Translations under genes and position numbers: made by a program
Notes under the pieces: model-generated
The model's database searches: none
Told to the model about the DNA's origin: nothing
Seen by the model: the letters and a program-made list of their open reading frames with translations, nothing else
IMG/VR virus record: IMGVR_UViG_2531839666_000033
Span: 1-29,739 of that record
DNA length: 29,739 nt
Source: a virus
Lineage: Duplodnaviria; Heunggongvirae; Uroviricota; Caudoviricetes
Direction: 5' to 3' (one strand)
In this document: positions 5,851 to 29,739 of the stretch, one piece after another
How the letters are laid out: each line of letters begins with the position of its first letter
Numbering within the stretch: position 1 is the first letter of the stretch

Positions 5851-7750
5851 GTTTGTTTTTCCATTCCGGGCTGGGTTAAAGGGGATGATTCGGCCATTGC
5901 CTGTGACGCCAGTTGAGTGGGCTGACAGACATTATTATCTACCACCAGAGTCTTCGTATCTTGCTGGTCGCTGGGAAACTCTGCCATTTCAGATGGCAAT
6001 AATGAACTGCATGGGGAATGACAGGATCCGCACGGTTAATCTGATTAAATCTGCCCGTGTTGGTTATACAAAGATGTTACTGGGCGTGGTCGGGTATTTT
6101 ATCGAGCATAAAAGCCGTAACACTTTATTGTTCCAACCGACAGATTCATCTGCTGAAGATTTTATGAAATCTCACGTGGAGTCAACGTTACGGGATGTCC
6201 CTTGTCTGAAAATTCTTTCCCCTTGGCTGGGACGTAAGCACCGGGATAACACGCTGACATTAAAAAGATTCACCTCTCGTGTGGGGTTCTGGTGCCTGGG
6301 CGGTGCAGCCGCCAAAAACTACCGTGAAAAATCCGTGGACGTGGTCTGCTATGACGAACTTTCCTCGTTCGAGCCGGATGTTGAAAAAGAGGGCTCGCCA
6401 ACCCTGCTGGGGGATAAGCGTATTGAGGGCTCGGTATGGCCAAAATCTATTCGCGGCTCGACGCCTAAAATAAAAGGCACCTGCCAGATCGAAAAAGCGG
6501 CCAACGAGTCGGCGCATTTCATGCGTTTTTATGTGCCCTGCCCGCACTGTGGGGAGGAGCAGTATCTGAAATTTGGCGATGAATCCACGCCTTTTGGCCT
6601 TAAATGGGAGAAGGACAGCCCCGAAAGCGTTTTCTATCTCTGTGAACATCATGGCTGCGTGATCCATCAGTCTGAGCTTGACCAGAGCAACGGGCGGTGG
6701 ATCTGTGAAAACACGGGCATGTGGACCCGTGACGGCCTGACGTTTTTCAGCGCTGCGGGTAATGAAATTCCGCCGCCGCGCTCCATCACTTTCCATATCT
6801 GGACGGCGTACAGTCCGTTCACCACCTGGGTACAGATAGTCTATGACTGGCTGGATGCACTGAAAGATCCCAACGGCCTGAAAACTTTTGTGAACACCAC
6901 GCTGGGCGAGACCTGGGAAGAGGCCGTGGGCGAAAAACTCGATCACCAGGTGCTGATGGATAAGGTCGTGCATTACACGGCAGCGGTGCCTGCCCGGGTG
7001 GTTTATCTGACGGCGGGCATTGACTCGCAGCGTAACCGTTTTGAGATGTATGTCTGGGGATGGGCTCCGGGAGAGGAAGCCTTTCTGGTGGATAAAATCA
7101 TCATTATGGGGCGTCCTGATGAGGAAGAGACGCTGTTACGTGTGGATGCGGCGATCAACAAAAAATACCGCCATGCGGATGGCACTGAAATGACCATTTC
7201 CCGTGTCTGCTGGGACACCGGGGGGATCGATGGTGAAATCGTTTATCAGAGATCAAAAAAACACGGTGTTTTCCGGGTGCTGCCGGTAAAAGGCGCATCT
7301 GTCTATGGCAAGCCGGTGATCACCATGCCAAAAACCCGCAATCAGCGGGGCGTGTATCTGTGTGAAGTGGGGACGGACACTGCAAAAGAAATTCTCTATG
7401 CCCGTATGAAAGCCGATCCCACGCCTGCGGATGAAGCCACGTCGTATGCCATCCGTTTTCCTGATGATCCGGAGATTTTTTCGCAGACAGAGGCGCAGCA
7501 ACTGGTGGCGGAAGAGCTGGTGGAGAAGTGGGAAAAAGGAAAGATGCGTCTGCTGTGGGATAACAAAAAGCGGCGTAACGAAGCGCTGGACTGCCTGGTG
7601 TATGCCTACGCGGCATTACGTGTGTCCGTGCAACGCTGGCAGCTTGATCTGGCTGTACTGGCAAAATCCCGGGAAGAAGAGACGACCCGGCCAACCCTGA
7701 AAGAACTGGCAGCGAAGCTGTCCGGAGGAGTGAATGGTTACAGTCGCTGA
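5801..7750 (+). CDS. A: terminase large subunit (lambda gpA-like)
   Basis: Matches lambda A across its length (VEWAD…YYLP…GRWETLPFQ…, [37 protein letters not shown]). Start uncertain: the track uses GTG 5786; ATG 5801 or TTG 5819 are alternatives; overlaps the nu1 3' end as in lambda. Confidence 0.93.
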
Positions 7751-24636: not shown

Positions 24637-25039
24637 ACATCGCGCCCCGGGATTGCCGGAAGGAGACAAAAACCGTACAGTATGCGCGGGTGCCTTTGGC
24701 TGATGGCCGGAGGGAACACCTGAAGGCCGGAAAGACGAAGGCCCCGGACAAACATTCATGTTTAACCCGAGGCCTGACTTTCGATCTTCAGCAAATTGAA
24801 GGTTAGCGCCTCTCCGTAAAAGGAGCAAGCGTTTATGTCGCAAAACCGTTAAAAACCACCGTGATTTGTATCACGGTAGTGCTCATTATCTGGATCACCC
24901 ACAGTTCACTGTGCGAGTTCCGGTTCCGGATAGCGGGCGCGGAGATTGCGGCGTTCTTACAGTGTAAGCAGTAAGAAACCGTGGCGGGGGAGAATATCCC
25001 CCGCCGACCGGTTGCTGAGGGTGGTCAGCCGGATGGCAC

Positions 25040-25116: not shown

Positions 25117-26517
25117 ATGACAGTCAGAATATCGGGTGTGCTGAAGGATGGTACGGGAAAAGCGGTACCGGGATGCACGATAGAGCTGAAAGCGCGACGC
25201 ACAACGGAGACGGTGATTGTCACCACGGTGGCGTATGGTCTGCCGGGGGAAACCGGCAGTTACAGTATGGATGTTGAGCCGGGGTTGTACCGGGTGACGC
25301 TGAACACGGAAGGGTACGCGCCGTCATATGTGGGTGACATTCTGGTGAAGGCGGATTCTGCACCGGGAACGCTGAATAAATTTCTGATGGACCTGGAAGA
25401 CGCACAGTATTACCCGAAAGCCCTTGCAGAGCTGGAAGCGGTGGCCGCGGAAATCCTGAAACGTGCGGAAGCGTCAGCGGCGAGTGCAGAGGAAGCGAAG
25501 AAACGGGCAGAGAATGCGCGGGGACCGAAGGGGGATAAGGGGGACACCGGGCCGCAGGGTATTCCCGGGCCAAAAGGCGATACCGGCGAGCGTGGGCCAA
25601 AGGGTGAGCGTGGTGAGACAGGACCACAGGGGCTTCAGGGTGTGAAAGGTGAACGGGGAGAGAAGGGCGAAAAAGGCGAGCCGGGAGGGCCGGATGCGAC
25701 GACGGCACAGAAGGGAATTGTGCAGTTAAGCAGCGCAACGGACAGTGATGATGAAACGAAGGCAGCCACCCCGAAAGCGGTGAAAGCGGCAATGGACAAA
25801 GCGGACGGATGCCTGGAGAAAGCGAAAAACGGTGACGATATCCCGGATAAGGTGAAGTTTCTGAACACCGTGGGAGCAGCCAGAGTATACGGGCGGGACA
25901 TTCATACGGAGACCGGTGAATGGACCACGAGTGAGTTTGTGGCCTGGCTGAAAGAAAAGGGGGCATTTGACCAGCCTTACTGGATGATGAAGGCATCACT
26001 GCTTGCGGAATTTAATAAGGTCATCACGGATGTCGGACCGGGAAAACTCAATCTGGGAGGCTGCGCCATTGAGGTGATGGGGACGTATAACGCAGCCATA
26101 GTCCGGGTCACCATCGGCGAATACGGTGGCGATGGTTTTCTGAACGGCACGGTCTGTACCTGTACAGTTTACGGAGACACACAACGTTTTCACTGGCGGG
26201 TGGATTACAGCACAAAAAACAAGCCCACAACAGCAAGCCTGACAGTAAATGGCTGGGAGCGTGATGAAGTAACCGGTCGTTTGCGGCAATGGGGCAGTAT
26301 TGAGGTAAGTGAGGATGATGGTAAGCTTATGACACAGCACTCTATCCGTTTTCCTGTCGCTTTTCCGGTTGCTGCTCTGAATGCTCAGGTGTCTGCAGTG
26401 GGAGACCCCCACGCCATTAAGATGTATACCCTGTCGAATCCGTCATTAGTGTCTGTGACTCTGATAACAGTCAGGGGATGCTACGGCAAGTTTTCATGGG
26501 AAGCGATCGGATACTGA
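25117..26517 (+). CDS. stf: side tail fibre protein (lambda Stf-like N-terminus) with an 18-triplet collagen-like Gly-X-Y repeat and a distinct C-terminal receptor-binding domain
   Basis: N-terminus [14 protein letters not shown]…C.I.LKARR…SMDVE.G.Y and motif [29 protein letters not shown] match lambda Stf; [57 protein letters not shown] lies at about 25521-25683. Confidence 0.85.
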
Positions 26518-26751: not shown

Positions 26752-27416
26752 TGCATATCAGAAATTTTTCGTATTACACCCCGGCGGAGCCGGATGTTGC
26801 AGGCGCGATGTACCTGAAGTCTGAGGATGGTCAGGACTGGTATGAGTGTCAGGCGTTGTTTTCGCCGGAGACGCTGAAGGTGGTGTATGACAGCCGGGGT
26901 GTGATTACGGGATACGGTAAGGACACTGCGTTACTGTGGCCGGTGAACCAGAGTGTGGCAGAAGTGCCGGATACCCCGGAGAGCCGGAAAATTGACCTGA
27001 GCGGGCGCTGGGGCTTTGACGGGGAGAAAATCACGGACCTGCTGACCGCGGAGAAAGCGCGAGGGATGAAGGGCGATGAAATAAACGCGTGGCGTAATGC
27101 GATGGAAGCGGCGAACTACACGTTTGAGCACAATGGGCGTAAATGGGACTACGGGAAGTCAACGCAGACGCGTCTTGAGCCGTCGGTGGCTGCAGCGAAA
27201 GCGGGGAAACTGCCGGAGGCGTTTTTCTGGACGGATGCGGAAAACAATGATGTGCCGGTGACAGCAGAAGAGCTTATAGCGCTGAGTGAAGCGGCAGAGC
27301 AGGCGATGTTCACTAAAGGGATGGAAATCCACATTCGCCAGCGCACCATGAAGAAGGAGCTGGAAAAGCTGACCAGTGCGGATGAGATACTGGCATACAG
27401 GGTGGACTGGAAATAA
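26748..27416 (+). CDS. tfa: tail fibre assembly protein (Mu U / P2 G / Tfa family N-terminal domain) with a divergent C-terminal region
   Basis: MMHIRNF…YLKSEDGQDWYE…FSPETLKVVYDSRGVITGY…WPVNQSVAEVPDT…LSGRWGFDGEKI parallels the Mu U N-terminus (MMHLKNI…YTEDGKNWYE…FQPDTLKMAYD…). Confidence 0.8.
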   Translation: MMHIRNFSYYTPAEPDVAGAMYLKSEDGQDWYECQALFSPETLKVVYDSRGVITGYGKDTALLWPVNQSVAEVPDTPESRKIDLSGRWGFDGEKITDLLTAEKARGMKGDEINAWRNAMEAANYTFEHNGRKWDYGKSTQTRLEPSVAAAKAGKLPEAFFWTDAENNDVPVTAEELIALSEAAEQAMFTKGMEIHIRQRTMKKELEKLTSADEILAYRVDWK

Positions 27417-27421
27417 AAAGA

Positions 27422-27441
27422 AGGGGAGCGGATGCTCCCCT
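27422..27441. terminator. terminator-like hairpin (8-bp stem AGGGGAGC/GCTCCCCT, GGAT loop) after tfa; the U-rich tail is on the minus strand, the A-tract on the plus strand
   Basis: aaataaaaagaAGGGGAGCggatGCTCCCCTgatatctg; strand of function is ambiguous. Confidence 0.4.
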
Positions 27442-27906
27442 GATATCTGAGTAGTATGCTGTTTATCGTTATCATTCATCAAAAGAATATTACCGTATGG
27501 CACGGCAGCAGAACATGAAATTTGTCTCAGAACTGCAAATCAGCATTACGGGTAGTCAGGCAGATAACACAACGGGATAAAAAACAGCAAAATGCATTGA
27601 TAAAAAATTTTTACAGGTAGGTTACCGGGCGTTATGTGACGCATATCAAAAACAGAACTGTAACGGGAGATAACAGAATGATGGATTCTGGCGTGGAGTA
27701 ACGGCGCAATGCGTTCCGGGATGGTGTTTCTGAGAATGTGGCTGAAAACGCCCACAATACAGTAAGAAAAATCCTAATCGATTATATTAATTTTTACGGA
27801 ACTATTCGGAATACCCTTATGAAAGGCAACGAAGTGTCAGTATTTTTAATGTGTTCTGACACGCGTTGCTCTGTTTGTATACAAATCATTTCATAGGGTA
27901 TACCAG

Positions 27907-29178
27907 ATGAACAAAAAATTCTCTAAGACTATTCTTTCTTCTGTTGTTGCCGGACTGTTGCTGGTAAGTAGTGGGGGTGTTGCAAAAGAGATTGATATTG
28001 GTGGTAAATATAAAGTTATTCTGACAGAGGAAACAGGTTCGGCAAGGATTGTGGATATAAATACTAAAAAAGATTTATTTGATGGAATTATTAATGCGAA
28101 AACAGGCACTGTTACTACTGTAAACAAAAAAGAGATTCAATCTGCTATAGATAGTTTTTATGCCGCTAACCCAAAAATAAATAAAGATGATCCAAACATT
28201 AAACAGATGGTGGCTCAGGCTGCTGGTAATTCGGGGCGTTATACAGTCTCTTTACCCAGTGGGCTCCCTTCGTTAACGACTGAAAATATTTTCAATCTAA
28301 AAGTGACTGATATTGAAAAAATAAAATCTAATATTGATGGTGTTAATTCAGTTATCACCAGTAAAACTGCAAAAGATTACAATATTGCTATCAGTAACGG
28401 CATGAGTTCAGAAGCTGCGCTAACAGCGGCTAAAGATGGTAATGGAGCGCTGTTACAGGAATTCAACCGTCTCGGCACAAATGTAAATGACCTGAAAAAT
28501 GCCACTACATTTGCTCTTGATGAAAATGGTGAAATTACCTATGAAAAAGGAGTGGAAAGCATTCCTGTTAAGGATGTGGTTGCAGAGGTAAAAGCCGATA
28601 CAACAATTCGTAAGAACAAAGATGGCAGCTATACCCTGGATCAGACCGCGCCTGATACTGTTCGTGTGAACGCTGCAATTGTTGATCTGGATAAAAATCT
28701 GAAAGACAGAACCACTGTTGGCGTGAATTCAGACGGCAGCCTGACCACTGCTGAAGGAGCCACAAAAACTGTTGCGGTAAGTGAAGGCCTTGTTTCCCTG
28801 TCGGGAAGAACTGACCGTATTGATGCTGCGGTTGGTGGCATTGACACCCGTGTCACCAAAAACACTCAGACTATCCAGAATCACTCCCGCCAGCTGCAGG
28901 AGCATAACGCGCGGCTGAACAGTCAGCAGCGTCAGATTCGTGAAAACCACGAAGAAATGAAACGTGCTGCTGCACAGAGTGCGGCACTGGCAGGTTTGTT
29001 CCAGCCGTACAGTGTGGGTAAATTCAACGCCACCGCAGCACTGGGTGGTTACAGTGACAAACAGGCTATGGCCGTTGGTGTGGGTTACCGCTTTAACGAG
29101 CAGACAGCAGCCAAAGCAGGTATTGCAGCCAGCGACGGTGATGTATCCTACAACGTTGGTGTGAACTTCGAGTTTTAA
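27907..29178 (+). CDS. trimeric autotransporter adhesin (YadA-like C-terminal membrane anchor; possibly Eib-family immunoglobulin-binding protein), AT-rich cargo gene
   Basis: Signal peptide [26 protein letters not shown]; C-terminus [70 protein letters not shown] is a typical YadA anchor; coiled-coil stalk ([27 protein letters not shown]); AT-rich codon usage unlike the flanking phage genes. Confidence 0.8.
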
Positions 29179-29202
29179 TTGCGGACAGTGACATGAAGCA
29201 TG

Positions 29203-29238
29203 ACGGCAGGCAGGGGATTTGGCCTGCCGTTTTTTTCT
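29203..29238 (+). terminator. Rho-independent terminator after the adhesin gene (9-bp stem ACGGCAGGC/GCCTGCCGT, T7 tail)
   Basis: acggcaggcaggggatttggcctgccgtttttttctc, read directly from the sequence. Confidence 0.6.
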
Positions 29239-29265
29239 CATGTGAGCATGAAACAGGGGGCTGCG

Positions 29266-29739
29266 ATGAAAGTGATTCTGGCGACCCGTAACCGTTATCT
29301 GGAGTACGGTCTGCAACAGATGCTGGAAGGTTACAGGGTGATACTGGCGAGGGAATTTTTTATCCCGGAGAACAGGAAGAGTGTACCGACCCATGATGAG
29401 TCCTGGGTGATTATCTGTGATGCTATGGTGAGTCGTCTGATGCGCTGTATGTTTCAGGGACGCCGTTATCTTCAACTGGATGCGGAGGAGATTACAGGGC
29501 GTCTGGAAACGGACAGGAAAATCCGTAACGGTGACTGGGAACAGAACACATACGCACGTCCGCTGACGATGTCAGAGATGGTGGTGATGTTTGGTTATGT
29601 ATACCGGGAGTCAAAGCCGTGTCATCTTGCCCGTGAAATGGGAATTCACACGAAGACAGTGAACACCTTTCTGTATATGGGGCTTGGTAAAAACGGCCTG
29701 AGGTACAGAAGTGTGAAGCATCTTGTGGGGCGGGCATAG
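29266..29739 (+). CDS. putative LuxR/GerE-type HTH transcriptional regulator (about 157 aa)
   Basis: C-terminal PLTMSEMVVMFGYVYRESKPCHLAREMGIHTKTVNTFLYMGLGKNGL fits a degenerate LuxR-type HTH (…KTV…); AGGGGG RBS 5 nt upstream of ATG 29266 (ATG 29248 is in frame but falls within the terminator tail); stop at the window end. Confidence 0.5.
   Translation: MKVILATRNRYLEYGLQQMLEGYRVILAREFFIPENRKSVPTHDESWVIICDAMVSRLMRCMFQGRRYLQLDAEEITGRLETDRKIRNGDWEQNTYARPLTMSEMVVMFGYVYRESKPCHLAREMGIHTKTVNTFLYMGLGKNGLRYRSVKHLVGRA

Follow-up and report, generated by a model that had tools for sequence, protein, structure and literature searches.

The last 2.3 kb of a 29,739-nt stretch of viral DNA (IMG/VR record IMGVR_UViG_2531839666_000033; 'the window' refers to this whole stretch) consist of two plus-strand open reading frames (ORFs), located 3′ of the tail-fibre genes of a lambdoid prophage. 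The best explanation overall, to which we assign a rough probability of 0.72, is that the two genes make up a moron cassette at the prophage's right end, in which an Eib-family trimeric autotransporter adhesin (type Vc) is followed by a NarL/FixJ-type homologue of ORF-156.

GenBank entries for the ECOR-9 prophage fragments already document the Eib family, where it sits in prophages, and that ORF-156 exists. Apparently undescribed in the searchable literature, and put forward here as hypotheses, are the fold assigned to ORF-156, its systematic pairing with anchor genes, and a conserved box and hairpin in the leader of the adhesin gene. A full-text search for 'orf-156' together with 'eib' found nothing, with the original Eib papers outside its reach, and the accessible literature, which calls Eib regulation complex, names no locus-encoded eib regulator.

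Spread by prophages, Eib-type adhesins bind antibodies at the wrong end, make cells resistant to serum, and drive chain-like adherence of Shiga-toxin Escherichia coli (STEC) negative for the enterocyte effacement locus (LEE). The allele in the window joins the antibody-binding stalk of EibE to a head-less passenger from an unnamed and very large family of prophage proteins (PHROG 'unknown function'), illustrating adhesin diversification through module swapping. ORF-156 as a LuxR/NarL-type protein, the RcsB-like box, and the leader hairpin provide testable handles on eib regulation.

The adhesin, ORF-156, and their linkage

The initial annotation described the first product as a 423-amino-acid (aa) protein with a signal peptide, a coiled-coil stalk, and a YadA-type anchor ending NVGVNFEF, and suggested an Eib-like identity; all of this was borne out. 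Pfam YadA_anchor (PF03895) matches residues 365–423 with an E-value of 1.2e-15 and 57.7 bits (cut-off 22.7), and the N-terminus aligns with Eib signal peptides. Among sequences of the Protein Data Bank (PDB), EibD comes first (2xqh, 1.5e-21), the YadA anchor 2lme matches at 3.6e-18, and the EibD coiled coil 2xzr aligns with residues 298–354. When phages were searched by megablast, the ECOR-9 fragments P-EibE, A, C, and D matched the 3′ part of the gene together with the downstream ORF.

Identity to the named Eibs is unevenly distributed. In the last 156 residues, which run from the saddle through the left-handed coiled coil to the anchor, identity is 89% to EibE, 81% to EibD, 81% to EibC, and 79% to EibA, and the N-terminal 267 residues are only ~33–37% identical to the named Eibs. 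A YadA-like beta-roll head or neck was not found, as Pfam returned neither YadA_head nor YadA_stalk and the head is a gap in the alignment with EibC/D/E. Such a head, carried by EibC–G but not by EibA, does not strictly define the Eib proteins. NCBIfam YadA_autotrans scored below threshold (65.8 bits vs a cut-off of 750), and a right-handed coiled-coil stretch, otherwise present only in EibC/D, is absent from the window adhesin in the alignment.

An AlphaFold model of the monomer contains a signal helix, two saddle strands, a 73-residue helix (residues 291–363), and four terminal strands. Its mean predicted local distance difference test (pLDDT) score is 62.8, a low overall confidence that is expected because the protein is an obligate trimer, and the N-terminal domain (residues 26–200) reaches 80–92. 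A fold search with this model matched the YadA anchor alone, with no PDB match for the N-terminal domain. The N-terminal part is common to many E. coli prophage proteins of 350–430 aa (54–78% whole-protein identity), which are labelled only 'YadA C-terminal domain-containing' or, in PHROGs, belong to families of unknown function.

Among known systems, EibE (P-EibE, ECOR-9, AF151676) is closest in the membrane-proximal part. It shares not only the above-mentioned C-terminal segment with the saddle, TDRID motif, and anchor, but also a coiled coil one heptad shorter, the same terminator, and the position of both genes after a DUF4376/ORF-191-type gene. EibE (487 aa), however, has a YadA-like beta-roll head, a neck, and a right-handed coiled coil, all lacking in the window adhesin, whose N-terminal 267 aa are AT-rich and ~35% identical. 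EibA (P-EibA, ECOR-9, AF151091) is likewise head-less, with an N-terminal domain and a coiled coil and no beta-roll (PMC12511318). Its gene is also followed by ORF-156, but its passenger is ~33% identical, its C-terminal module is one heptad longer, and ORF-156A is 70% identical. YadA of Yersinia has the same kind of anchor domain and the general lollipop/fibre export mechanism, but its head and neck have no counterpart here. The adhesin is very probably a member of the Eib family; as yet unnamed, it resembles EibA in having no head and EibE in its membrane-proximal module.

The whole module had also been called AT-rich. This holds for the region upstream of the adhesin gene (40.2% GC over 490 bp vs 54.6% in the rest of the window) and for adhesin codons 1–265 (37.7% GC; 28% at third codon positions, GC3), but not for codons 266–423 (52.6% GC) or the second gene (50.2% GC, GC3 58%). 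The module is a compositional mosaic with AT-richness confined to the leader and the distal passenger, and the latter was probably swapped in by recombination.

The product of the second gene is 89% identical to ORF-156E and ~70% to the other ORF-156 proteins (A, C, and D), which the ECOR-9 GenBank records annotate without function after eibA, C, D, and E. A 179-aa reading with a start at 29200 was rejected, because the extension translates the terminator and conservation begins at MKVILAT.

A degenerate LuxR/GerE-type helix-turn-helix (HTH) had been noticed in this product. Its presence is supported by predicted structure, fold comparison, and sub-threshold profiles, but not by any significant hidden Markov model (HMM) match. 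Across 24 ORF-156 homologues, the GerE profile (PF00196) gave E 0.056 for one, and a few match Sigma70_r4. When a profile of the family was compared with PDB sequences at E up to 10, four sub-threshold returns were obtained, all of LuxR/GerE type: one Vibrio LuxR-type regulator three times (E 0.08) and GerE (E 0.23). The profile is in register with the LuxR motif LT..E..V...KP..IA..MGI..KTV, and K130, T131, and V132 in the recognition helix are invariant in the 24 homologues.

The AlphaFold model made with these homologues (pLDDT 83.5) has a beta-alpha-beta-alpha-beta-alpha-beta-alpha domain (residues 2–88) followed by four helices (residues 102–153) with the fold and recognition-helix motif of a GerE-type HTH. 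In a Foldseek search of the PDB, the top 36 matches were all NarL/FixJ-type response regulators (best E 5.7e-4), with StyR, FixJ, RcsB, LiaR, DesR, VraR, DosR, VpsT, and EvgA among them. In the receiver-like domain, ATRN replaces the acidic pair after beta-1, the beta-5 lysine is missing, and D52 at the end of beta-3 is the sole invariant phospho-site residue, leaving the response-regulator set of acidic pocket, phospho-acceptor Asp, Thr/Ser, and Lys incomplete. The models support describing ORF-156 as a pseudo-response regulator with a degenerate LuxR/GerE HTH, and make it quite likely that the protein binds DNA.

The family is narrow. A word-indexed search of 5.8 billion proteins gave 43 clusters, in which every legible source name gives E. 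coli together with 'hypothetical' or 'uncharacterized', some clusters being nameless. The family profile found only 37 matches among 1.84 billion representative proteins, apparently the family itself and its fragments, and no named LuxR relative surfaced from this library, which carries no names.

The two genes are separated by 87 bp between the adhesin stop and the ORF-156 start. Within this interval, the terminator proposed after the adhesin gene proved to be a real hairpin with a 10-bp stem (29202–29231; ΔG −19.8 kcal/mol, z −3.4), the last two pairs of which involve the first two T of a T7 run (29230–29236). Because the ~30 bp left after the terminator are too little for a promoter of its own, ORF-156 is probably made by terminator read-through.

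All 25 fetched loci with an Eib-type anchor gene, which represent about 13 distinct genomic contexts, have an ORF-156 homologue 3′ of that gene. The spacing is 82–91 bp in 24 of them, the exception (L024) having frameshifted genes. The linked loci include a P22-like prophage with a P22-type tailspike, a non-phage island beside a 1,439-aa autotransporter, and adhesins only 48% identical to the window adhesin.

Table 1 Positions of the cassette, its parts, and neighbouring features. Positions are those of the window, except for the solo ORF-156 loci, which are numbered within each locus.
Feature	Position	Strand	Remarks
Tail fibre gene	25117–26517		phage_tail_N, Phage_fiber_2, collagen repeats
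Tail-fibre-assembly-like ORF, 74 aa	26527–26751		Resembles N-terminal part of Tfa proteins (phrog_188)
DUF4376 tail-fibre-assembly-like gene, 222 aa	26748–27416	+	Pfam DUF4376 2.9e-18, weak Caudo_TAP; upstream cassette boundary
AT-rich intergenic region, 490 bp	27417–27906	+	GC 40.2%
GC-rich hairpin	27422–27441		Just past DUF4376 stop codon; ΔG −16.4 kcal/mol, z −3.6; T-run on minus strand only
RcsB-box-like motif TAAGAAAAATCCTA	27763–27776	+	144 nt upstream of ATG
−10-like hexamer TATATT	27783–27788	+	6–7 nt past the box; no good −35
Leader hairpin, GGCAACG..GTGTCAG / CTGACAC.CGTTGCT, with U-rich tract	27825–27870	+	ΔG −19.4 kcal/mol, z −3.7
Palindrome TTTGTATACAAA	27874–27885		22–33 nt upstream of ATG; sole exact copy in window
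Eib-family trimeric autotransporter adhesin, 423 aa	27907–29178	+	Ends NVGVNFEF; signal peptide ~aa 1–26; N-terminal domain and stalk 27–267; saddle 268–298; left-handed coiled coil 299–363; anchor 365–423
Eib C-terminal module, aa 266–423	28702–29178	+	~53% GC; contains TDRIDAAVG
D306 codon	28822–28824		Within TDRIDAAVG; IgG-Fc determinant by homology
YadA-like membrane anchor	28999–29175	+	Four beta strands per protomer; Pfam PF03895; 2lme by sequence and fold
Intrinsic terminator between adhesin gene and ORF-156	29202–29236	+	Conserved in all eib loci
ORF-156 homologue, 157 aa	29266–29739	+	Start as annotated in RefSeq; stop codon forms the window's final triplet
ORF-156 domains	29563–29724 (HTH)		Receiver-like without acidic pocket, aa 1–95; LuxR/GerE-type four-helix HTH, aa 100–153
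Solo ORF-156 loci	L035–L037 3001–3516; L006–L009 5001–5495; L010–L013		

The eib leader and a possible role of ORF-156

Within the region upstream of the adhesin gene, only the proximal ~170 bp (27740–27906) are conserved across all eib-like loci (alignments A4, A6, and A9). A 168-bp eibG upstream fragment has been used to drive expression from a plasmid (Kotaka et al., PMC13534694). The conserved part contains TAAGAAAAATCCTA, which fits the RcsB box TN(G/A)GAN4TC(T/C)NA, structurally defined by Huesa et al. 2021 (PMC7913699). This motif is kept in most eib leaders, with one-mismatch forms in the eibA-type (TAAGGAAATTCCGA) and L019-type loci, and the specified letters of TAAGGAAATTCCGA are the same as those of the rcsA-promoter box listed in PMC7913699. 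The −10-like hexamer past the box is conserved, every locus type having TAnAnT or CATATT at this place (alignment A6), and may serve as the −10 element of a candidate eib promoter.

In P-EibA, a 'stem_loop' annotated in GenBank (L003 3777–3814) consists of two 11-bp arms in perfect inverted repeat, GAAATTCCGAA / TTCGGAATTTC, on either side of the −10-like hexamer, the left arm overlapping the RcsB-box-like motif. The window has a degenerate form of this repeat at 27763–27813, AAATCCTAA ... TTCGGAATA. In appearance, the P-EibA repeat is closer to a protein operator than to an RNA structure.

A terminator- or attenuator-like hairpin with a U-rich tract lies farther downstream in the leader. Every other eib-like leader folds at the same place, 35–80 nt before the ATG, with different stems, such as AGCCGUAA/UUACGGCU in eibE and AAGCAGCC/GGUUGCUU followed by U7 in L019, where it resembles a full terminator; equivalents were found in L001, L003, L004, L014, L019, and L023–L028. 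Because the position is the same and the stem sequences differ in every leader, the hairpin is a conserved structure, and it may be an attenuator or an mRNA-stabilising element. It was seen when each sequence was folded alone, and RNAalifold on a MAFFT alignment of the leaders missed it because of indels.

Two other leader elements were considered and set aside. The palindrome TTTGTATACAAA was a candidate operator for ORF-156, and in 13 of 13 eib-like loci TTTGTATACA keeps a constant distance to the ATG, but it is absent from all eight solo ORF-156 loci, leaving that role unsupported. A second hairpin, formed by the palindrome's GUAUAC with a GUAUAC between the ribosome-binding site and the start codon, is not conserved in eibC/D/E.

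We propose that ORF-156, produced by terminator read-through, would be held at a fixed low ratio to the adhesin and would tune transcription from the conserved leader, perhaps by joining host RcsB, in the way of RcsA, on the RcsB-box-like operator. RcsB uses the small FixJ/NarL-type auxiliaries RcsA, GadE, BglJ, and MatA/EcpR (PMC7913699, PMC5829831). Like them, ORF-156 is small and has a (predicted) LuxR/GerE HTH and an N-terminal domain without canonical phosphorylation, and an RcsB-box-like sequence is found in the promoter region of its neighbouring adhesin gene. Unlike them, it has no HMM-detectable homology to the group, is shorter (157 aa), and is encoded downstream of its putative target. 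MatA/EcpR is encoded beside the adhesin (pilus) operon that it activates.

Published work calls Eib expression complex and finds it raised when cultures are static or stationary (PMC4352079, PMC5450701), an induction pattern that action of ORF-156 and RcsB on the leader would fit. In a more far-reaching version, the ORF-156 proteins would be E. coli-restricted RcsA-like pseudo-response regulators that travel with trimeric-autotransporter genes. Read-through ORF-156, alone or with RcsB, and the leader attenuator would then form a prophage-encoded feedback circuit, via the box and the hairpin, that couples envelope or surface sensing to display of an adhesin for antibody binding and serum resistance. 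If true, the circuit would account for the 'complex' Eib induction in static culture; as a whole we consider it unlikely.

Several observations weigh against regulation from this leader and against the regulatory assignment itself. The RcsB-box pattern is degenerate, and its two occurrences in the window, vs 1.17 expected, are not rarer than chance. The box is only 6 nt from the candidate −10, which is unusual for an activator; no such box was found upstream of the solo ORF-156 genes, and a consensus scan found no sigma-70 promoter on the plus strand. ORF-156 falls in no functional family in Pfam, NCBIfam, or PHROGs, and the best Foldseek E-value given above is weak. After transfer into K-12, eib genes needed the unlinked ibrAB for good expression, which would make ORF-156 alone insufficient.

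The linkage, too, can be read otherwise, since it could be due to hitch-hiking of a 3′ recombination block. ORF-156 might then be no adhesin regulator at all, but a mobile LuxR-like gene serving host or island genes, or a decaying relic, within that shared block. Three divergent solo subfamilies (47–58% identity) occur in unrelated islands that hold neither an adhesin gene nor a trace of one in the vicinity. One follows hpaBC, another is in an EspG/PerC island, and the third lies between type VI secretion (ImpA/VasL) and kps capsule genes (kpsF end). The ORF-156 type also co-varies with the anchor type, EibE-like anchors going with the E type and A/C/D-like anchors with the 69–70% type, as simple linkage would give, and a terminator separates the two genes. 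On the other hand, the pairing and its spacing persist with adhesins down to 48% identity in lambdoid, P22-like, and non-phage contexts. The ORF is also intact, its recognition-helix residues are invariant in 24 homologues, and proteins of this class bind boxes such as the one in the eib leader. The non-regulator alternative keeps a substantial minority chance.

Because solo subfamilies occur without an adhesin gene, the ORF-156 family is not strictly adhesin-dedicated; it is adhesin-associated, not adhesin-exclusive. For the same reason, regulation of eib by ORF-156 is plausible and unproven, and we hold it tentatively, at clearly less than even odds. As a separate observation, one LuxR-like ORF-156 homologue adjoins the kps region 1 promoter.

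Predicted display and immunoglobulin binding

Following the manner of YadA and EibD, the signal peptide would carry the adhesin across the inner membrane, and the four-strand C-terminal anchors of three protomers would form a 12-strand barrel in the outer membrane, by way of which the passengers would reach the surface as a trimeric fibre. The third of this fibre nearest the membrane, consisting of the saddle and the left-handed coiled coil, would be the conserved Eib module with D306. An EibE-type Fc-binding stalk would thereby be displayed under a different, recombined head-less tip, and the adhesin would contribute to serum resistance and to cell–cell or surface adhesion.

Eib proteins bind human IgG Fc non-immunologically as SDS-stable multimers, and some members also bind IgA. 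The Fc-determinant motif is TDRIDYAVG in EibC/D/E (D387 in EibD) and TDRIDAAVG in EibA and the window adhesin. In EibG, the D391A substitution abolishes IgG-Fc binding, and binding survives removal of the passenger through the end of the saddle (Kotaka et al. 2026, PMC13534694). IgG binding has been described for EibA and EibG, in which the Fc site likewise reads D-A and not D-Y. Because it carries the D306 determinant, the window adhesin most likely binds IgG Fc non-immunologically. Sequence conservation is what this prediction for the present allele draws on, and the coiled coil is one heptad shorter than in EibA/C/D, as it is in EibE; with both points counted against it, we regard Fc binding as probable rather than assured.

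The IgA site of EibC/D lies within the right-handed coiled-coil stretch. Because this stretch is absent from the window adhesin, IgA binding is not expected.

The adhesin could instead be a Cla-type chain-forming or aggregating adhesin without immunoglobulin binding, its Eib-like C-terminus being just stalk and anchor. ClaA and ClaB, which like Yal of LEE-negative STEC are EibG-related prophage or island trimeric autotransporters, do not bind IgG but confer serum resistance as well as chain-like adherence (Kotaka et al. 2026, PMC13534694). The window adhesin, too, lacks a YadA-like head, its passenger is ~35% identical to named Eibs, and its close head-less relatives P0004, P0007, P0010, P0035, and P0073 lack the saddle and TDRID segment. 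However, Cla proteins are reported to lack the critical aspartate and to have other gene contexts (PMC13534694), whereas the window adhesin has D306 in a segment 89% identical to EibE, and what remains of EibG after deletion through the saddle suffices for Fc binding. Yal also differs, as it has no saddle. Because D306 is present and the context is canonical for Eib, we do not consider the window adhesin a Cla protein, and the Cla-type explanation is unlikely.

Within the Eib reading, the head-less relatives, which in alignment A7 also include P0041 and P0064, are modular: a ~45-aa segment containing the saddle and TDRID is present once, absent, or tandemly duplicated (in two proteins). Judged from these sequences, immunoglobulin binding may have been gained, lost, and perhaps doubled through cassette-like indels.

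Prophage context and distribution

The initial annotation placed the adhesin gene right after the tail-fibre genes, and this site is the same as that of eibA/C/D/E in the ECOR-9 prophages. The order tail fibre, DUF4376, eib, ORF-156 is found in the ECOR-9 prophages and in all other fetched loci, so that the cassette has the genomic setting of eib genes, in a lambdoid prophage, after tail-fibre and assembly genes and followed by the terminator and ORF-156. It is quite improbable that the cassette is expressed mainly as the tail of the phage late transcript by Q-antiterminated read-through and matters in lytic growth rather than in lysogens: it does lie directly 3′ of the late genes in the same orientation, no consensus promoter was detected, and an antiterminated polymerase would ignore the terminator-like leader hairpin, but Eib proteins are detected in uninduced cultures and controlled by growth conditions in published work, the above-mentioned 168-bp eibG fragment that drove plasmid expression is equivalent to the conserved 170 bp of the leader, and it is hard to see what a lysing cell would gain from an adhesin in its outer membrane.

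A 100%-identical copy of 27400–29739 is present in the chromosome of E. coli IBS28, where it closes a prophage ordered lysis, terminase, head, tail, J, hok, stf. The integration site of this prophage adjoins a ykgJ-family pseudogene, yodB, and zinT. At ≥99% identity, the full cassette occurs in 9 of 5,426 complete E. coli genomes, from seven human or food isolates (several with STEC strain names), one pig, and one wild ibis; it is found at full length in none of the phage-collection records. Among the genomes that Kotaka et al. 2026 (PMC13534694) analysed, JNEC-KY202 carries a 99%-identical copy.

The eib-like cassette of STEC299, with an adhesin 48% identical, adjoins the same YkgJ-family gene as the IBS28 prophage (L026 4533–4865; L002 10632–10964), suggesting that different eib alleles are carried by prophages sharing one integration site. 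In many loci, an S6-family (SPATE, Eaa-like) autotransporter protease gene follows the eib/ORF-156 pair, sometimes with a 60-aa ORF between; it begins ~270–290 bp past ORF-156 in L023, L024, L027, and L028, and lies at 5932–9939 in L003. In the IBS28 copy, chromosomal genes are directly 3′ of ORF-156, and the window ends at the ORF-156 stop codon.

The DUF4376 gene at the upstream boundary is also found 5′ of eib-like genes in other loci, and its product has PHROG matches to both tail-fibre-assembly and tail-fibre families. The preceding 74-aa ORF overlaps it by 4 nt, and the tail-fibre assembly function appears to be split between the two.

Farther upstream, the J tail-tip gene and the tail-fibre gene are separated by a hok/sok toxin–antitoxin locus (24688–24974; Rfam sok, 63.2 bits). 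Relative to IBS28, one nucleotide of the window is missing from an A-run just past the hok start codon, a deletion that frameshifts the annotated 46-aa Hok and leaves a 37-aa ORF with a GTG start (24861–24974). The frameshift could reflect a pseudogene or a sequencing error.

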